From Methanocellales archaeon (GTDB lineage: Archaea; Halobacteriota; UBA148): a DNA stretch of 64,000 nt. This document shows positions 6,344-34,958 of this stretch, piece after piece (position 1 is the stretch's first letter; each line of letters starts with the position of its first letter). The position numbers and the translations under genes are program-made. The notes under the pieces are model-generated. The model worked only from the letters and a program-made list of their open reading frames with translations, did not search any database and was not told where the DNA came from. The DNA lies in assembly GCA_028715985.1 (NCBI GenBank), contig JAQUQR010000001.1:267905-331904 (forward strand), read 5' to 3'.

Positions 6344-6919
6344 TTATGCTGTAATTTCAGAAGAAATTATTTCTTGTATTTGAAACCAATAGGTCAACAA
6401 TTCCTTTTCTTTCTTTTCGTAATCGGGAAATTTCTTGGAAATTGTTTTCCAGAAGTGTTCATTGTGCCTTTTTTCTTTTAAGTGTATTAGTTCATGATAG
6501 ACGATGTAGTCGATCATTTTTTGGGGGAGGTATCTCATTAGTGTGTTGAATGTCATATTTTTCTTACTACTACAGCTTCCCCAATTTGAATTCATTTTTC
6601 GGAAATATATGTGATTTATATGAAAATCGCCTTCTTCAGAATAGTTACTCGCTATCGAGTTCACAAGTTGTTTGAATTTATCCTCTGATCTCTCCACGAG
6701 ATTTTTCTTTTTTGAATCCCTGAGTGCAGCCTGAATTATCCGGTTTTTTTCATGAATCCAGTCTTTGTGTTTTTCAATAATTTCAGCAGGGTTTTTTTGG
6801 TGTTCGGGTAAAACAAGGAGCAATCTACCTGTCTTGAATTCCAGTCGAGGATACTTTACCCTTCTCCTGGCTACAGTGTATTCAATTTTTGTATCATTTA
6901 GGCTATGCTTTTTGGCCAT
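6344..6919 (-). CDS. DUF45/YgjP-like (M48/WLM-like) zinc metallohydrolase
   Basis: HELIHLKEKRHNEHFW contains an HExxH zincin motif at the position typical of YgjP/SprT-like hydrolases. Confidence 0.7.
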   Translation of the reverse strand: MAKKHSLNDTKIEYTVARRRVKYPRLEFKTGRLLLVLPEHQKNPAEIIEKHKDWIHEKNRIIQAALRDSKKKNLVERSEDKFKQLVNSIASNYSEEGDFHINHIYFRKMNSNWGSCSSKKNMTFNTLMRYLPQKMIDYIVYHELIHLKEKRHNEHFWKTISKKFPDYEKKEKELLTYWFQIQEIISSEITA

Positions 6920-16841: not shown

Positions 16842-16954
16842 GGACTTGTGGGGTAGTGGACTATCCTCTTGGGCTTCGGACACGAAGTTATCTACTCACT
16901 TTGAAAACTCAAGGAAGATACTCAAGGACCTGGGTTCAAATCCCAGCAGGTCCG
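16842..16954 (+). tRNA. probable intron-containing tRNA (anticodon uncertain; TCG for Arg if the loop is CTTCGG)
   Basis: Acceptor 5' GGACTTG pairs with 3' CAGGTCC (one G-U wobble). T8 is present. D-arm is GGGT/AGTGGACT/ATCC with GG in the loop. A perfect T-arm CTGGG-TTCAAAT-CCCAG is followed by the acceptor 3' strand and discriminator G. The span is about 113 nt, which implies an intron of about 40 nt. Confidence 0.4.
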
Positions 16955-26048: not shown

Positions 26049-27272
26049 ATGGGAGCGATGCGAGAAATCGAGCTTGAAGGTCATATTATCGATTCGATGG
26101 TCCTGACGAAGGTATTCGATAAGGTAATGGACATGGATGGCGAGTTTGAAATCCTGGAGTTCAGGATTGGAAAACGCAAGACTGAGCATAGCTATGCTCG
26201 CCTCATGATCGTCGGCGAGGATGATGCACATGTGGACAGAATCCTAAGCGAATTACATCGATTGGGTGCACGATTGCCAGAAATGGAGGATGCCATCTTG
26301 GAGAGAACGCCAGCTGACAAAGTCATCCCGAAGGGCTTTTACTCCACTACTAATCATCCGACCTATGTCAGGCATAACGGCAAATGGCTGACCGTCGAAG
26401 GCATAGGGATGGATTGTTTGATTCAGGTAGATGGTAATAGGGCCATATGCAAGCCGCTTTCACATGTTCGCAAGGGCGATTTGGTCGTGATCGGGCAAAG
26501 GGGGGTGCGTGTGATCCCGCCCGAGCGCCCAAGAAAAAGATCGATTTTCGAGTTCATGGGCAATGCCACCTCTTCTGAGAGGCCCTCAGAGACGTTGATT
26601 CATCAGATTGCCGAAGAAATAATTGACGTCAAAAATAAGGGCGGCAAGATCGCAGTGGTGTGTGGGCCCGCAATAGTTCACACTGGGGCGTCAGGTGCAC
26701 TCGCAGAGATGATCAAGAAAGGCTATGTGAGCGTCTTGTTGGCAGGAAATGCCTTGGCTGTTCATGATATCGAGTACAATCTGTATGGTACATCCCTCGG
26801 AATGGACATGGGGAAAGCGGAACCCGTGTCAGGAGGGCACAGACACCACATCTATGCGATCAGTGAAATCATGCGAGCTGGCTCCATAAGGGCTGCAGTG
26901 GAGCAGGGCATCATATCGGGAGGGATCATGTACGAATGCATTAAAAACGATACGCCCTTCGTGCTTGCCGGATCCATCAGGGATGATGGGCCCCTGCCAG
27001 ACGTCATAACGGATGTGATGGTGGCACAGGACAAGATGAGGGCTGCGGTAAAAGACGTCGATCTGGTGCTGATGATGGCTACGATGCTGCACTCCATAGC
27101 TGTCGGCAATCGTCTCCCATCCTATGTGAAGACCATTTTTATCGATATCAACCCTGCCACCGTGACGAAGATCATGGACAGGGGAACAGCTCAGGCAATG
27201 GGCATCGTGACAGATGTGGGAACGTTCCTGCCAATGTTGGTTGAAGAGCTGGGTAAGTTAGAGAATATGTGA
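26049..27272 (+). CDS. LOR/SDH-domain protein, TIGR00300 family (archaeal-type ornithine cyclodeaminase-like)
   Basis: About 400 aa conserved across archaea. Sits in the arg gene neighbourhood. Confidence 0.55.
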
Positions 27273-27630
27273 CGTTACTTTTATACAATTCAAGCATGGG
27301 AACATAGGACATTTATGTAGCATATAAACGAGGTAGGCGATATTTATTCCCAATGGAGATAGGCAATGTAGGAAGGACAAACTATCTATAAAAGATGACA
27401 ATTACAATGATTCTATTGTAAAATCAACTTTTTTCAATCATCACAGCCCTACTCAAATTCTATTTGAACCGTCATGTAAAACCACCTTTTCTGCTAGCCT
27501 GAGATTCTCATAGGTTTTTGGTTAGGTTAATAAATAAAATCTAAAGACAGTGCCCCTTATTTCTACAAGAGTGTGGCTAGATTTTTATTGATACGATGCT
27601 GTGTGTTTTTTGTCAATATTACTCAAAAAA

Positions 27631-27686
27631 TTGCTTAAATTAAGCAATATTCTAACTAATTAACTATATCAATAGTGACAATAACA
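27631..27686 (+). promoter_or_regulatory. promoter of the HD-TIR operon: palindromic operator TTGCTTAAATTAAGCAA (27631-27647), then TATA-like TTAACTATATCA and the conserved block TAGTGACAATA
   Basis: Same palindrome, TATA and TAGTGACAAT block as the promoters of cassette genes A and B. Confidence 0.55.
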
Positions 27687-27717
27687 TTTTAATACATAAG
27701 CGAGGGACACGTGCAAA

Positions 27718-29688
27718 ATGCAAGATGAACAAAAAGATCGTTGGGTAGGATGGATTAAAACTCCAGAATATAGAGAACGCCTGCAGACAATAGAGAACCG
27801 TGTTATACAACTGTCATCTAATGAAATCAACACTAGTGGTTATACACCCCACGATGCCAGTCACTGTTTGGCAGTTGAAAATATGGTAAAAACTTTAATT
27901 CAAAAAAGCGAAGCCAAACTTAGCGATTTAGAACAATTTATTCTTTTTGGTGCCGTATGGACGCATGACTTGGGAATGTTCATGGACATACGAGAGGCTT
28001 TTTTCGAGGACCAAAAACAAGAGGTTAAAAAAGGAGAGTATAAACTGCGAGTTGCTAGAGAGATACATGACAAGATTTCAGCATGGTACTTATCTTCTAA
28101 CTACAGTGAGATTCTAAAAATCCAGAGTGATGAAGATGGCCAATCAAAAACTATTATTGACAACTTGTTAAGAAACTATACCTACACTATAAATGTGATA
28201 AGTTGATTTCACCGTATAAGGGAAGACATAAAGGATTGTCCTAAAGAGAGATTACTAAAGGATGAGAAGATACGCACACGCCTATTAGCGTGTTTACTAA
28301 GATTAGGAGATACTTTGCATATTGACTCCAGTAGATTCGATGAAAAACTCTATGATGTCTTAGAAATAGGGCAACTACTGGATAGGAGTGCAAGACTTCA
28401 TTGGCTGAGGTCATATGTTGTGTCTGGTGTATATTTGGATCCTAAAAGTGAAACCATTTTTGTCAACATTGACTTGCCGATATCCTTGAAATCTCCCCAG
28501 AACAACGAATTAGATAGAACGGAGGAGATCAGAAATCTAGTGTCTGTGATTATTAATGACCTTTCCGAAGACGTGCTGGTTGTTAGAGGGACATTTAAGG
28601 ATTATGGTTTTCCCGCCTACGATAGAGTAGAACCCAATATATCTTTCATTCCAGGATATTCGGGAAAGGATGAGAAAGAAATAGAGGGTATGGTGAGTGA
28701 CCTTGGAGTTGTCCTTTTTCCTAATACATCTAGAGTCATAGAGAAAGCCCTTGATAGCATCACCGCTATATGTAATATCTATTTTGGAATTGAAGGTCAG
28801 AGATTTGATAGTCAGATGGATGAATTGTTGTCATATCTCGAAAGTGTACACGAGACTCGGCCCTGTCACGTTGGACTCCGCAAGATAATTGATGAAGCAC
28901 GTGATGTGTTTAATAATAGATCCTATCAGAATAAGAATAGGGGAGATGTATCAAGTCAGGATATAAAGAAATGTCAAGATAATATCTGCGCAAAACTCAA
29001 TGAAATCAAAGATAAAAGAGAAGGATATCTAAAAAGCCTGTATAAAAAATGTGAAGACAACTTGCTGGATGACTTCGAAAACATAATTCTTTTTGCATAC
29101 AGTGAAACAGTAACTCAATTTCTTGAAAAGTATGGTGAACACCACCCTTCATGGAAAGATCGAGTTAAACTCTATGTATTAGAGTGTGGTGGGAAAAGAC
29201 GTTTTACGCGCAACAATAACATAGACTACAATGATGGTATATATTACGCGTTCCAGCTATCAAAGCACGGTTTCAAGAAAAAAGATCAAATCATGTTGTT
29301 GCCAGACACATCCTTTGGTTCTCTTGCATACAACCTGAAGAATCAAAATATGGCAAAAAAGTCTTTGGTCCTATTTGGGGTTAATGGCATCGATAAAGAG
29401 AGCCATGACTGCGGGCACACATCTGGGCATCGCATGGTAGCAATCGTGGCACAAGAATCCAGAATCCAAGTCAAGGTTATTGCAGATAGTTTCAAGGTAG
29501 GGAAAATAGAGTGGAGCCCCATGCTTGAGAGACCCGCTCACTGGCTAACAGGCAAACGGGACATGTATAGTGACATAAAAAAACACAACATCAAACTGAC
29601 AAACTATTTAGAAGATAGAATTCCAATAGATCTAATAAATGAGATAATCAAAGATGGGGATAACATACCTGGAAAGGCTAAAAAATAA
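27718..29688 (+). CDS. HD-domain phosphohydrolase or nuclease fused to a large uncharacterised C-terminal region (about 656 codons); one in-frame TGA at 28204-28206 (candidate pseudogene or recoding)
   Basis: HD motifs are SHCLAV (His), WTHDLGM (His-Asp), REIHDKIS and LLRLGDTLHID. The last motif lies after the TGA in the same frame, so ORFs 27718-28206 and 28315-29688 form one reading frame. The C-terminal part includes a Gly-rich VLFGVNGIDKESHDCGHTSGH segment reminiscent of Rossmann-like ligand-binding folds. Confidence 0.6.
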
Positions 29689-30537
29689 ATGTCTGCAACT
29701 CGATTTAATCTTTCGCCTAATGATGTTGATGTATCCGATACAAAAATTTTTATTTCTTACAAAACGAAGGAATGGGAATACGCTAAAAAACTTAGCGAAG
29801 AACTGAGAAATTTAGGCTTTGGTATTATAATTGTTCCTCCACAACCATCAAGTTCTCCAAAAAAGAAGAATGAAGATATTAAAACATACCTTTCTGAACT
29901 AATAGATGATGCTGATTACATATGTATAATAGTCTCCGAAATGTCTCTCATGTCAGCTTGGGTTCAATACGAATTTAAGGAAGCTGCTAGTTTGATTGGT
30001 CGAGTTGTTTTCGTTAATAAAGATAATACGCAACTTTTTTCAGGATATGAAGCAGTTGATTACCTTCAAAAGGGATTTATATGGCGGAATTTATATGTAA
30101 AACATTCCACTCTTACATTACCGGAAATTACAAATGAGGGTGTAAATGAACTTGCTATACAATTACTAAATGATCCAGACGAAGGTTGGTATGATGGTCG
30201 AGTATCGGTTGGTCGAAGATGCCCAGCAAAAGGATTGCGTTATCAAAATAGGATGAAAAAATATGCCAGAGAGTGTGTTTTGGTAGATCCCAAATATGAG
30301 CATAAGTATGTTCTAGAGGTAATTCCATTTAATTGGAGCCAAATAGAATGCGATAAAGAAGATATGGAAGCTGTCTTAAAATCAATTATTCTGGATCGAG
30401 GACTCCTAAATCTTGAAAGATCTTTTCTTAATGATGAAGTAGACATTTTTCAAACTTGGTACTTCGTAACGGAATTTGAAGAATTTTTAGAAAAAGATGA
30501 TTTTGGTCTTAACGTTTTTGTTGTGTTAGAGCGCTGA
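29689..30537 (+). CDS. TIR-domain protein (N-terminal TIR of about 130 aa plus a C-terminal domain of unknown function)
   Basis: KIFISYKTKEWEYAKKLSEELRNLGFGIIIV matches the TIR betaA-alphaA-betaB segment. ADYICIIVSEMSLMSAWVQYEF matches the SxWCxxEL region that carries the putative catalytic Glu. The ATG directly abuts the HD gene's TAA. Confidence 0.65.
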   Translation: MSATRFNLSPNDVDVSDTKIFISYKTKEWEYAKKLSEELRNLGFGIIIVPPQPSSSPKKKNEDIKTYLSELIDDADYICIIVSEMSLMSAWVQYEFKEAASLIGRVVFVNKDNTQLFSGYEAVDYLQKGFIWRNLYVKHSTLTLPEITNEGVNELAIQLLNDPDEGWYDGRVSVGRRCPAKGLRYQNRMKKYARECVLVDPKYEHKYVLEVIPFNWSQIECDKEDMEAVLKSIILDRGLLNLERSFLNDEVDIFQTWYFVTEFEEFLEKDDFGLNVFVVLER

Positions 30538-30624
30538 TGGAACTTGATTTATATAAATATGGGGTGGAAGACTGTTCTATTTAAAGACTGCCTGCAATGG
30601 ACGGCTAACAGCGAACAAACGAAA

Positions 30625-30685
30625 TATAATATTTACAAATTGCTTTTCAACTTCGTTTGTTTTTTCGCAAAACGTTATTCCCCTA
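30625..30685 (+). terminator. hairpin with a 10-bp stem (AACAAACGAA...TTCGTTTGTT) followed by TTTTTCGC, downstream of the TIR gene
   Basis: Perfect inverted repeat with a loop of about 33 nt and a T-run. Confidence 0.35.
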
Positions 30686-30706
30686 ACCTCAACCACTACT
30701 CCACAA

Positions 30707-30762
30707 ACATCAAGGGATAGTCCAGCTTCTCATCATATCTCATAATTCCCGCGACCTTGGCA
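30707..30762. repeat. 56-bp perfect direct repeat, distal copy (duplicate of the mptD 3' end)
   Basis: Identical to 32662-32717. Confidence 0.9.
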
Positions 30763-30851
30763 ACTTGATTTAGGATACAAGCAGTTATGTGCAATTGAAA
30801 AAGTTCGCCTTTAGAATGTTTTATAAATTTCAAGTCGTTATTTAAAGAAAT

Positions 30852-31415
30852 ATGGAGCTGGGAAAAAAGCTATATGTAACCAATAGAAACGATTGGCGTT
30901 CATGGCTTGCTAAAAATTATGATAAAGAAAAAGAAATTTGGCTAATTTATTATAGAAAATCATCTGGCAAACAAAGAATACCATACAACGATGCTGTTGA
31001 AGAAGCACTCTGCTATGGATGGATAGATAGCAATCTCAAAGGTATTGATGAAGAAAAATTTGCCCAAAGATTTACTCCAAGAAAACCGAAAAGTAAGCTT
31101 TCAGAGATGAATAAAGAACGTGTTCTTCGCCTTATAGAACAAGATAAAATGACTTTCATTGGTCTTGCTTCCATAGAACACGTATTTGATACAAACCAAA
31201 AAAATAAAAAATTAACAATTGCTCCTGATATTTTGAAAACCCTTAAACAAGACAATGAAGTTTGGAAAAACTTCCAGAAATTTCCTGACCCATACAAACG
31301 TATTCGTATCGGTTGGGTAGAAGGAGCTAGAACTCGCCCGAAACTTTTTAACCAGAGATTAAATTATTTTCTTAAGATGACAGCAAAGGATAAAAAATAT
31401 GGGAAGGTACAGTAA
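30852..31415 (+). CDS. YdeI/OmpD-associated family protein
   Basis: N-terminal WRSWL...EIWLIYY and CYGWIDS motifs characteristic of this family. Confidence 0.65.
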   Translation: MELGKKLYVTNRNDWRSWLAKNYDKEKEIWLIYYRKSSGKQRIPYNDAVEEALCYGWIDSNLKGIDEEKFAQRFTPRKPKSKLSEMNKERVLRLIEQDKMTFIGLASIEHVFDTNQKNKKLTIAPDILKTLKQDNEVWKNFQKFPDPYKRIRIGWVEGARTRPKLFNQRLNYFLKMTAKDKKYGKVQ

Positions 31416-31705
31416 TAAAATGACGGCGCACTTCTTCGCAACTTCGTTGCTCGACCATGTTGCACTCTCGCCTTCGGCTCGGGGCACATAACAGCGATTA
31501 ACAGGTTCAGCTCTTAGAGAGCCTCAACCCAAATTTACTTCGCAAACTTCTATTAATCGTATAGGTTAGGCGACATGCCTTCTTTATCTTTTAAGTAGTT
31601 TTCCAGCTAAACTTTAAGGATAAAGGGGCAAAACAAAATTTTTGATATAATGAAGTCAATTCAAGTCAAAAGACATTTAAATACTTATTAACCAAATTTA
31701 AACCT

Positions 31706-32104
31706 ATGAAAGGATTTACCACAAACATCGAAAAAGACACCTTAAAAAACGAAAATTTCCGCAAGGTACTATACACCTCAAAACACAGCCAACTGGTTCT
31801 GATGAGTTTAAAGCCCAATGAGGACATCGGTATGGAAGTTCATTGGGAAAACGATCAATTCTTCCGCTTTGAAAAAGGGCAGGGAAAGTGCATCATTGAC
31901 GGCAACGAATATAAAATTGGTGATGGTATAGCCGTTGTTGTGCCTGCCGGGGCGAAACACAATATTATTAACACATCGGATAAAGAAGAATTGAAGCTTT
32001 ATACAATATATTCTCCTGCTCACCATAAAGATGGTATTGTCAGGGCTACTAAAAAAGAAGCAGAGGCTAGGGAAGCAGAATTTGATGGTGTAACGACTGA
32101 ATAG
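31706..32104 (+). CDS. cupin domain protein
   Basis: Cupin motifs G(x)5HxH-like (MEVHWEND) and a GxxxxxPxGxxH-like motif (VVVPAGAKHNIIN). Confidence 0.7.
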   Translation: MKGFTTNIEKDTLKNENFRKVLYTSKHSQLVLMSLKPNEDIGMEVHWENDQFFRFEKGQGKCIIDGNEYKIGDGIAVVVPAGAKHNIINTSDKEELKLYTIYSPAHHKDGIVRATKKEAEAREAEFDGVTTE

Positions 32105-32282
32105 AATAATTTCTTGAAAAGATTTTTGCAAGCGGCAAAGTAAAATGAAAGATAAAAAATGTGACAACAGCAGATAACAAGTGGATAAAGGGGAAATCAA
32201 AGATTTCCCGGATTGCCTTCAACAACCTCTTTTATCTGCAAATCGTTATACGCCATTAACTCGTTCAAGGAGAAGATAAAAT

Positions 32283-32645
32283 ATGATTGACATCATTTTA
32301 TACTTATTAATCGGTTTATTTGCAGGGTTTGTCAGCGGGTTAATCGGCATCGGCGGTGGAGTCATTATCGTGCCGATATTGATTTATCTGTTGGGTCTAA
32401 CACAGCACCAAGCACAAGGGACAACCTTGGCTTTGTTAATTCCCCCAATCGGTTTGTTAGCTGCTTGGACCTACTACAAGCATGGTTATGTAAATTTCAC
32501 TATAGCGGTTTTTGTTTGCTTGGGTTTTTTTATCGGAGGATTGTTTGGTGCAAAGTTAGCTGTGGGATTGTCAAATGAAACACTGCGAAAGGTCTTTGGG
32601 GTTGCATTGCTGTTAGTAGCTTTATACATGATTTTTAAGAGATGA
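32283..32645 (+). CDS. TSUP (TauE/SafE) family half-size membrane transporter
   Basis: Four TM helices with GLIGIGGGVI.VPIL motifs. Confidence 0.7.
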   Translation: MIDIILYLLIGLFAGFVSGLIGIGGGVIIVPILIYLLGLTQHQAQGTTLALLIPPIGLLAAWTYYKHGYVNFTIAVFVCLGFFIGGLFGAKLAVGLSNETLRKVFGVALLLVALYMIFKR

Positions 32646-32650
32646 GCCCC

Positions 32651-32983
32651 CTACTCTATAGACATCAAGGGATAGTCCAGCTTCTCATCATATCTCATAA
32701 TTCCCGCGACCTTGGCAGAGCCATATTGCACCTCTATGTGCACGTCCAGCATCCTGCCCTCCAGCTCGCAATAGCCGAATTTATTCAGCTTTTCCTGGAC
32801 CCTGTCGCGGTCTATCAAGACCTTTGCGCTTAACACGTATGGCTGAGCTGAGACGCTCTTCTCGATGGCGCGCTCTAAGCTGTCCAGCGTCTCCATGTTG
32901 AGGGGTGCGCCCGTATACTGGTGATACAGCGCCCCCAGCTTGATGCCAAGCTCGAATAACGCGCGCTCTCTATCCGATCGCAT
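32651..32983 (-). CDS. dihydroneopterin aldolase, archaeal MptD-like (assignment tentative)
   Basis: About 110 aa. Resembles the COG2098 family. Its 3'-terminal 56 bp are duplicated at 30707-30762. Confidence 0.45.
   Translation of the reverse strand: MRSDRERALFELGIKLGALYHQYTGAPLNMETLDSLERAIEKSVSAQPYVLSAKVLIDRDRVQEKLNKFGYCELEGRMLDVHIEVQYGSAKVAGIMRYDEKLDYPLMSIE
32662..32717. repeat. 56-bp perfect direct repeat, proximal copy (within the 3' end of mptD)
   Basis: Identical to 30707-30762. Confidence 0.9.
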
Positions 32984-33632
32984 ATTTCACCTTCCACACT
33001 AACGGGCTTAATATGTAGCCCGTGACCATCATGAGGGGGATCAGGTTAATAAAGTGCACATTTTGGACGGAGTATATGATGATGCTGAAGATGAGTACAA
33101 TGCCAACGGGCATCAGAATTTTTCTATCCTGAATTTTTGGATAGCTGATGCTGCTTACCATTAATGCTGAGAGAATCAGGTAGGAACCTGCCAATATCCG
33201 TGGATCTGCTTGGATGGTGATGAGCAGTGCCATACAGATTCCACTTGCGGTGATGGGTAACCCAACGAACTCCTTGCTTTTTGAACTTATGTTGAATCTC
33301 GCCAATCTCAGCATTCCACATGTCAGATAGGCTGCCGTAAAACCCGATGCAATATAGGGGTTTATCTCATTGATAAGCATGTAACCTGCTATAGCAGGCA
33401 CGATGCCAAAAGATACGAAATCCGCAAAAGAGTCCAGGTTCACGCCGAAAACTCCGTTCTCTATGTTTCTTGCGATGAATCCATCTAAGCCATCTACAAG
33501 TGCTGCAACCAGGATTAATACAGAAGCGCTTCTAATCTCTCCCCTTGCCACCATCAAAAGGGCGACGAATCCGAGTAGCGCATTCACGATCGTCACCAAA
33601 TCCGGTAACTTGATTAGCTTAAGAATGTTCAT
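32970..33632 (-). CDS. pssA: CDP-alcohol phosphatidyltransferase; archaetidylserine synthase
   Basis: D-G-x2-A-R...G...D-x3-D motif (DGLDGFIARN...GVNLDSFAD). Adjacent to psd and the archaeosortase. Confidence 0.8.
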   Translation of the reverse strand: MNILKLIKLPDLVTIVNALLGFVALLMVARGEIRSASVLILVAALVDGLDGFIARNIENGVFGVNLDSFADFVSFGIVPAIAGYMLINEINPYIASGFTAAYLTCGMLRLARFNISSKSKEFVGLPITASGICMALLITIQADPRILAGSYLILSALMVSSISYPKIQDRKILMPVGIVLIFSIIIYSVQNVHFINLIPLMMVTGYILSPLVWKVKYAIG

Positions 33633-33633
33633 T

Positions 33634-34221
33634 TCATTTATCTCTCCCTCGCCTCGCTATCACCGTCTCTCCTGCTTTGACCCTGTCACCGGGTTTTACG
33701 GTGAGTTCATACTCAGGTGGGATGGTCACTTCCACTCTGGATCCCAATAATATCGCTCCAAGCCTTTGCCCCGCCTCCACTTTATCCCCTTCCTTCACAT
33801 AGCAAACAATTCTCCTCGCCAGGATGCCTGCGATTTGAATTACGCTGACATCACCCTGCATCGTCTCGATCGTGATATGATTTTGCTCATTTTGATTCGT
33901 ATTTAGGAACGCAGGCCTGTGCATTCCTTTCAAATATTTGATCTCTTTGATGATGCCCGGCAAAGGGGCTCTGTTGACATGCACATCGCGAAGCCTCATA
34001 AATATGGTCACTTTGCTCCCAGCATGCATGACCACTCCATCAGCTGGAGATATGAAGCCCGATCCCTTTGGTGTTCGGTTCGGATCCCTGAAGAACAGCA
34101 TAAAAAAAATTACCAACGCAGCTCCAAGGATTGCGATCGGATACGTCTTAAGCAATATGGCGCCCATGGTTAACACCAGCGGAATCGCTATCCAACCCGC
34201 AGAGCCCTTGAACATCACCAT
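33634..34221 (-). CDS. psd: archaetidylserine decarboxylase proenzyme (PSD-related)
   Basis: Small PSD family. The G-S-T self-cleavage region lies near the C-terminus (ILLGSRV). Context next to pssA. Confidence 0.8.
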   Translation of the reverse strand: MVMFKGSAGWIAIPLVLTMGAILLKTYPIAILGAALVIFFMLFFRDPNRTPKGSGFISPADGVVMHAGSKVTIFMRLRDVHVNRAPLPGIIKEIKYLKGMHRPAFLNTNQNEQNHITIETMQGDVSVIQIAGILARRIVCYVKEGDKVEAGQRLGAILLGSRVEVTIPPEYELTVKPGDRVKAGETVIARRGRDK

Positions 34222-34958
34222 CTCCTTAACATCCCTGTTAAATCTTCTATCATGTCTACAACTTCTGGCAAGATAAGAAAGACGATATAAGCTATCAGAA
34301 ATAGCGCAATCGTGGACCCCATCTTCGCGAGTCCATGGTGTGCTATGTAAAAACTATGCTCACCGAACCATTGGTATCCATAAGCTGCCATGATGAACAT
34401 GTTTCGGATTATGTTGAGGACGTATATCAATGGAACCGATGCCAGGAACGCCTTGAATCTTCGCATGGGGGGTGCGTCAACTGCAAAAGTAACCCCGGTA
34501 AACAGTGCCATGCTTTCGATTCCCGTGCAGGCAAGGATGATCTTGATTTTGTATTCATTCAGGAAGATGTAACTTCCCAGTTTTGTGGCGGGAGCACCCA
34601 ACAAATTCAATCCCCAGACAGTCTGGGAGGTTACAGTCTCTATCAGCAAATCCCCTAAAAAAGACATTTCAGCAAACGGAAAGTAAAGGAACCCGCCGAT
34701 CACCGCTGCGCAGGTTATCGTTAGCAGCGTGTCTGATTCAGGTGATCGGAGGTTTAAAAATACCATGCAAATGCAAAACAAGCTTACCAAAATCATCAGT
34801 ACCGCGTTAAAAAAGTCTGAATTTTCGAGATAATGGGGCGGTTGTAGAGCCCAATGCGCTGCAAAAAACATCCATCCTGAGGCACCGATAAGGTTTTTAT
34901 TTCTGGGTATGATTATTGCTACCAGAAACAATATAAGTGAGATCCAGAGAATTATCAT
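34215..34958 (-). CDS. artA: archaeosortase (ArtA-like)
   Basis: Polytopic membrane protein with an ACTGIESMALF active-site Cys motif and conserved Arg residues (IIRNMF). Confidence 0.65.
   Translation of the reverse strand: MIILWISLILFLVAIIIPRNKNLIGASGWMFFAAHWALQPPHYLENSDFFNAVLMILVSLFCICMVFLNLRSPESDTLLTITCAAVIGGFLYFPFAEMSFLGDLLIETVTSQTVWGLNLLGAPATKLGSYIFLNEYKIKIILACTGIESMALFTGVTFAVDAPPMRRFKAFLASVPLIYVLNIIRNMFIMAAYGYQWFGEHSFYIAHHGLAKMGSTIALFLIAYIVFLILPEVVDMIEDLTGMLRRW

Follow-up and report, generated by a model that had tools for sequence, protein, structure and literature searches.

A probable young pseudogene in a Methanocellales archaeon: a CGA-to-TGA nonsense mutation in a horizontally acquired HD-CE/eIF2B-like gene

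The DNA analyzed here (the window) is a 64-kb stretch from a Methanocellales archaeon. On its forward strand, a reading frame of 657 codons extends from an ATG at 27718 to a TAA at 29686-29688, and its sole internal stop is a TGA at 28204-28206. The first 162 codons (27718-28203, +) encode the N-terminal part of an HD-CE domain, as placed by Pfam PF24391 and by alignment, with H45/H49, the H83-D84 pair within WTHDLGM, and H117. The remainder of the frame (28207-29688, +), 493 codons plus the TAA, encodes the end of the HD-CE domain, a helical linker, and a domain resembling eIF2B and ribose-1,5-bisphosphate (R15P) isomerase; these assignments come from PF24391, PF01008, PDB profile matches and Foldseek searches with a model of P0002, an intact orthologue from Ca. 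Argoarchaeum. Directly after the TAA, at 29689-30537 (+), begins the ATG of an intact ThsB-like TIR gene of 282 aa, identified by Pfam and PADLOC. Both genes lie in a low-GC island of about 5 kb (approximately 27273-32300), which has a GC content of 33-39% in the composition profile against 46-53% in its flanks. The island also holds an OmdA-domain gene (30852-31415) and a cupin gene (31706-32104), and it is inserted with arginine-biosynthesis genes on one side and a lipid/exosortase cluster of DHNA, CDP-OH-transferase, PSD and EpsH genes on the other.

Near the island's right edge, a TauE/SafE ORF of 120 aa (32283-32645, +) spans profile positions 2-237 with a large gap, and represents either a TauE gene of half the usual size or a remnant left at the island's edge. 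The 63-aa ORF that follows it has no Pfam match. Elsewhere in the window, Rfam recognizes a 113-nt tRNA at 16842-16954 (+; 39.9 bits) that ARAGORN missed, presumably an archaeal tRNA that contains an intron.

The original prediction held that the ORFs at 27718-28206 and 28315-29688 share one frame, that the 108 nt between them are free of stops, and that the apparent start of the second is a TTG (Leu). All of this was confirmed. The stretch at 28207-28314 has neither a stop nor an in-frame ATG, GTG or TTG, and the first candidate restart downstream of the TGA is the TTG at 28315, which falls within the conserved LLRLGDTLHIDSS motif. The HD-CE profile is matched at positions 3-142 upstream of the TGA (48.4 bits) and at 152-228 downstream of it (52.4 bits), both fragments exceeding the gathering score of 27 bits; intact P0002 scores 118.6 bits against the same profile. 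An IF-2B (PF01008) match follows the HD-CE domain at 34.4 bits against a threshold of 22.4. Because a single HD-CE profile continues across the TGA, the two ORFs are one gene and not a chance adjacency in the same frame. The window copy does not encode its HD-CE domain in a single uninterrupted frame, while all 33 aligned orthologues do, which agrees with the prediction that this is one gene broken by one nonsense codon. Annotation of a separate 457-aa ORF from TTG 28315 is an artefact that the interruption produces.

A protein search found 50 relatives with the same HD-CE plus IF-2B architecture, the best of them 77% identical and one from Ca. Argoarchaeum ethanivorans. We aligned 33 of the 50, and all read through the stop column with R, K or Q followed by an invariant H-R. 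At the nucleotide level, the two nearest orthologues (loci L005 and L008) read AGT/AGC CGA TTT CAC CGT where the window reads AGT TGA TTT CAC CGT. CGA occupies this codon in L005-L011, including all three nearest lineages, and the codon is a sense codon in 30 of the 30 family loci in which the motif was located (AAA/AAG in 12, CGA in 7, CGT in 3, CGG in 1, AGA in 1 and CAA/CAG in 6). With CGA in the nearest lineages and a sense codon in every locus, the TGA is a derived CGA-to-TGA change, reached from an arginine codon by one C-to-T transition. It had been proposed that a sense codon in orthologues would point to a pseudogene, and the nearest orthologues do carry CGA (Arg). The opposite outcome, orthologues that stop here and are followed by a separate gene, is found nowhere among the relatives compared: neither the aligned orthologues nor the loci include one that ends at the TGA position or carries an independent downstream gene.

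Recurrent disruption of this gene among relatives was considered and rejected. L014 and L017 proved to be intact genes with in-frame insertions. Such insertions, of about 90-670 residues, are present in several family members at one site of the eIF2B-like domain just before the LVLFGVNGI strand (L014 7611-7876; L017 1772-3783; P0010), which looks like a tolerated insertion hotspot. Two distant relatives, L034 (around 6864-6893, on the Ca. Formimonas warabiya chromosome) and L041 (around 6684-6719), switch frame in mid-gene at positions unlike that of the window; these are possibly independent pseudogenes or long-read frameshift errors.

The gene is of horizontal origin. Nucleotide identity of 87% to the Ca. 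Argoarchaeum copy (L005) is confined by blastn to window positions 27687-29685, while the CDP-alcohol phosphatidyltransferase, PS decarboxylase and EpsH proteins of the same two genomes are just 39-52% identical. These comparisons, together with the low-GC island around it, show the HD-CE gene to be a recently transferred single-gene cassette, and its family has lately passed from one archaeal order to another. The blastn block starts 31 nt ahead of the gene (27687-27717, +), and this shared segment includes, some 20-30 nt ahead of the ATG, a TATA-like TTTAATACATA (27688-27698). It is likely the cassette's own archaeal promoter, predicted to yield a leaderless or near-leaderless mRNA. A search for flanking repeats that would mark the insertion returned only short matches at chance level. 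In both genomes no more than a few kb separate the HD-CE gene from the CDP-OH-transferase/PS-decarboxylase/EpsH cluster, but the side of the cluster on which the gene stands differs (L005 1383-7977 versus window 27718-34958); this shared proximity could be coincidence or a common integration hotspot.

We assessed the domain architecture of the encoded protein on P0002, whose AlphaFold model has a pLDDT of 85 and a pTM of 0.77. Besides HD-CE, the N-terminal domain gives PDEase_I and HD matches, both below threshold, and its sequence marks it as a putative divergent metal-dependent phosphohydrolase of the HD superfamily, of HD/PDEase type. The C-terminal ~330 residues of the model match eIF2B and R15P isomerase chains in Foldseek with probability 1.0 and target TM-scores of 0.55-0.73, and a PDB profile search matches the same chains (eIF2B alpha/beta/delta and R15P isomerase). 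This domain thus has the fold of eIF2B alpha/beta/delta, ribose-1,5-bisphosphate isomerase and 5-methylthioribose-1-phosphate isomerase (7kmf, 3a11, 5yfs, 2yvk, 1vb5), proteins that bind sugar phosphates, but it shares only 13-18% identity with them and is fused to an HD domain that is absent from all of them. Judging from the modeled fold, the C-terminal half probably binds a sugar phosphate or nucleotide and may serve as a ligand sensor, and the intact protein would most likely be a ligand-regulated phosphohydrolase or nuclease. We found no relevant or experimental literature on HD-CE or PF24391.

The family has a patchy distribution that takes in many archaeal and bacterial phyla. Its gene neighbors are varied and some are defence-like, among them restriction-modification genes, retro-element reverse transcriptases, SIR2-STAND, HEPN and Uma2, and family members act as stand-alone genes, with no conserved partner. 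A form III-like RuBisCO large-subunit gene adjoins distant relatives at L027 (2902-4065) and L033 (7757-8920), both from Methanothrix/Methanosaeta, and at one metagenome neighbor. R15P isomerase, a member of the IF-2B family, feeds RuBisCO in the archaeal AMP pathway. We rejected a metabolic link as a general property of the family, as RuBisCO neighbors are confined to these two genome loci and one metagenome neighbor. Patchy distribution, recent transfer between orders and fast evolution are hallmarks of conflict genes, which suggests that the family functions in conflict or defence and makes an intact member worth functional study.

The TIR gene next door raises the question of whether the two genes work together. 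Its protein is full length, keeps 41 of 41 invariant family columns, and matches TIR_2 (37.6 bits, threshold 28), ThsB_TIR (27.9 bits, threshold 21.2) and the PADLOC ThsB models (E=8e-6). Its homologs occur in Thoeris-like clusters with other ThsB genes, one of them beside a SIR2+STALD ThsA-like gene. Thoeris combines a ThsB TIR signal generator with ThsA or another effector, and the gene abutting the HD-CE gene is likewise a ThsB-like TIR; the pair also resembles the Thoeris layout, a two-gene operon of a TIR and an effector with a ligand-binding domain. The HD-CE/eIF2B-like and TIR genes could then be an undescribed archaeal pair of Thoeris type, in which the eIF2B-like fold would sense an ADP-ribose-derived signal made by the TIR protein and activate the HD phosphohydrolase, and the nonsense mutation would be the recent loss of a costly effector that left an orphan TIR. 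The abutting stop and start, the shared low-GC island and the Thoeris relatives of the TIR protein are compatible with such a pair, all at this locus alone. Unlike Thoeris effectors, however, the HD-CE/IF-2B protein matches no recognized effector family, and the pairing does not recur.

Four approaches looked for a conserved TIR partnership of the HD-CE/IF-2B family and none found one. A tblastn search with the TIR protein had no match in 47 HD-CE loci; a TIR HMM and four phmmer seeds run against all ORFs of about 127 HD-CE/IF-2B loci returned 0 TIR neighbors; Pfam censuses of 101 and 85 neighboring ORFs did not place TIR among the recurrent families; and 0 of 5 gene contexts of TIR homologs included an adjacent HD-CE gene. 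Neither part of the HD-CE/IF-2B protein is matched by a PADLOC model, and NCBIfam likewise gave no match. A 2025 survey of TIR-based systems describes 29 putative effector types, and the portions of its text and supplements that were searched hold no IF-2B/eIF2B term, PF01008 or PF24391 (bioRxiv 10.64898/2025.12.03.692087). We therefore regard a Thoeris-type pair as unlikely, and a functional link between the two genes is possible but unsupported. The suggestion in the original prediction that the HD-CE gene encodes a toxic defence effector stays an inference, given that no PADLOC model matches it and that it has no conserved partner.

We next consider what the interruption would leave of the protein. 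Across the family, the invariant or near-invariant residues are H45/H49, H83-D84 and H117 upstream of the stop and H165, R166, R195, D198, H201 and D203 downstream of it; in 34 sequences the HD-fold residues H49, H83-D84, H117, H165 and D198 are invariant or nearly so, and the last two follow the stop. The alignment thus upholds the earlier claim that essential HD residues lie beyond the TGA. On the P0002 model, the TGA falls midway through the HD domain, where helix 141-163 ends, and the 162-residue product is without the distal half of the active site. The enzyme would be inactive unless the TGA is read through, and low-level natural readthrough may occur.

The gene could instead have been split into two functional products, a 162-aa N-terminal fragment and a 457-aa eIF2B-like protein started at TTG 28315 that acts in a role such as ligand sink or regulator. 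In favor of this, nothing interrupts the downstream frame, NCBI annotates the 457-aa ORF as a protein (P0003), and a Shine-Dalgarno-like AGGAG (28305-28309) stands 5 nt upstream of the TTG. This AGGAG, however, consists of codons of an L-G-D motif conserved in all orthologues, and so does not show that a start evolved. None of the orthologues is divided here or has a free-standing C-terminal gene. Starting at the TTG would place the N-terminus of the product midway along a conserved HD-domain helix and leave out H165, R166, R195 and D198; as the TTG lies beyond these residues, the two fragments could not rebuild the enzyme. A functional split is distinctly unlikely.

A sequencing or assembly error, with a true CGA and an artefactual T, deserves attention because the window derives from a metagenome-assembled genome (MAG), and it was one of the options raised at the outset. 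Contig JAQUXB010000001.1 of a second Methanocellales archaeon MAG (GCA_028692575.1) has the same sequence as the window, and the whole 1,971-nt gene, the T at 28204 included, is 100% identical in the Logan assemblies of SRR22315505, SRR22315507 and SRR22315508; the MAG and the three runs probably stem from one study or community, and so replicate assembly and sequencing, perhaps not independent populations. Two more long contigs with the neighboring TIR gene are indexed. Position 28204 is outside any homopolymer or repeat, and the other lineage-specific oddities of the window copy fit a real decaying gene. The same DNA in the MAG and in three separate per-run assemblies makes an assembly error very unlikely. 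The T is the assembled consensus across several sequencing runs, and the nonsense mutation is real in the population, where a minority intact allele may exist beside it. The three short per-run contigs (L002-L004) begin at 26713, 27152 and 27207 and all end at exactly 30736, 199 nt past the TIR stop, which suggests either a break in coverage or a strain-variable junction at the right side of the island in those samples.

The genetic code of the window is standard. Stop usage among its 66 non-overlapping long ORFs, with TGA in about 25 besides the interrupted one, TAA in 24 and TAG in 16, rules out a TGA-sense code (like tables 4/25). The TGA-T context seen at 28204 terminates 11 of these approximately 25 ORFs. 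The argJ gene, a LOR/SDH-like gene and the TIR gene end in TGA, and their Pfam profiles finish at their stops. No second TGA-interrupted gene occurs within the window; a further candidate for an interrupted gene, at 565-2097 with a TAG between same-frame ORFs, consists of separate aroD and aroE genes, each matching its profile completely.

Selenocysteine had been judged improbable from sequence context, and the orthologues concur: none of the 33 proteins and 30 loci has Cys at the site, which is always R, K or Q, and TGA serves as an ordinary stop in the window. From these residues and the lack of an RNA-family match we rejected selenocysteine; it has no support, and neither has conserved readthrough. 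An Rfam search of 27000-31500 found no family at E<=1, although Rfam may not cover archaeal SECIS elements, and tRNA-Sec is absent from the 64-kb window. The proposed scan of the 3' UTR for a SECIS hairpin had no object, as the TIR gene starts at 29689 and leaves no 3' UTR after 29688. Archaeal selenocysteine use occurs in Methanococcales, Methanopyrus and some Asgard lineages, and is not known from Methanocellales. Recoding of the TGA into a full-length protein, whether as selenocysteine, under a TGA-sense code or by programmed readthrough, is extremely unlikely: the 493 open codons downstream with all invariant residues kept are equally expected of a very young pseudogene, and the site, with Arg, Lys or Gln and never Cys, Sec or a stop in any orthologue, is not a conserved recoding site, quite apart from the ordinary use of TGA in the window.

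With each of these alternatives weighed, we conclude that the locus is very probably a young pseudogene, created by a CGA-to-TGA nonsense mutation in a horizontally acquired HD-CE/eIF2B-like gene. Of the three explanations first offered, inactivating mutation, sequencing error and recoding, the CGA of the nearest orthologues supports the first. In the sequence of events that we propose, a horizontally acquired single-gene cassette would have encoded an HD-CE plus eIF2B-like protein of about 656 aa, until one C-to-T transition turned Arg codon 163 from CGA into TGA. Translation from ATG 27718 would then end after 162 residues, ahead of H165/R166 and of R195/D198/H201/D203, and truncation before those invariant residues would leave no complete HD active site. 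Since then, the copy would have begun to gather unusual substitutions without a frameshift or second stop.

The state of the frame is consistent with a recent lesion. Apart from the TGA it is clean, with no frameshift and no second stop. In the window copy, five columns of at least 90% conservation carry substitutions (Q216E, K231R, E503D, L572R and P584Q), and the IGQ-LDRSARLHW motif contains a unique extra Leu; relatives at 60-77% identity show 0-3 such deviations and no unique insertion. Unusual substitutions without a frameshift or second stop indicate that inactivation was recent. Lineage-unique nonsynonymous and synonymous changes number 90/30 in the window copy against 62/40 in two intact orthologues combined (Fisher p=0.03), and a relative-rate test with eight outgroups assigns 36-37 derived residues to the window copy against 21-23 to the intact copies (p=0.05-0.07). 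These are mild signs of relaxed constraint, and statistically borderline. Between the two intact orthologues (L005 and L008), dN/dS is 0.50 at a dS of only 0.17, which suggests that fast protein evolution is a property of the family independent of pseudogenization.

Several consequences follow for how the locus should be used. The annotation should join its two "hypothetical proteins" (162 and 457 aa) into a single entry marked as a pseudogene, and the locus should not be cited as a case of recoding or of gene splitting. The locus also brings into view a widespread and uncharacterized family of HD-CE/eIF2B-like fusions, for which the Ca. Argoarchaeum copy is a reasonable functional target. That copy, CHKLHMKO_00033 of Ca. 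Argoarchaeum ethanivorans (P0002, 658 aa), has the same two-domain architecture and length as the window gene, is 77% identical to it in amino acids and 87% in nucleotides, and keeps all 28 invariant residues. The window copy differs from it by TGA in place of CGA, by its unique one-residue insertion and by its five substitutions at highly conserved positions, and, unlike the window copy, the Ca. Argoarchaeum gene has no TIR gene after it.

Pseudogenes that arise by CGA-to-TGA mutation are known among prokaryotic accessory and defence genes, and the case in the window is like them in its CGA transition, its otherwise open frame, its place in a low-GC acquired island and its mildly faster evolution. 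Set against known prokaryotic nonsense pseudogenes, nothing about it is unusual. The pseudogene is biologically ordinary, and its modest interest lies in the uncharacterized mobile family to which it belongs and in its one-off juxtaposition with a Thoeris-type TIR gene.
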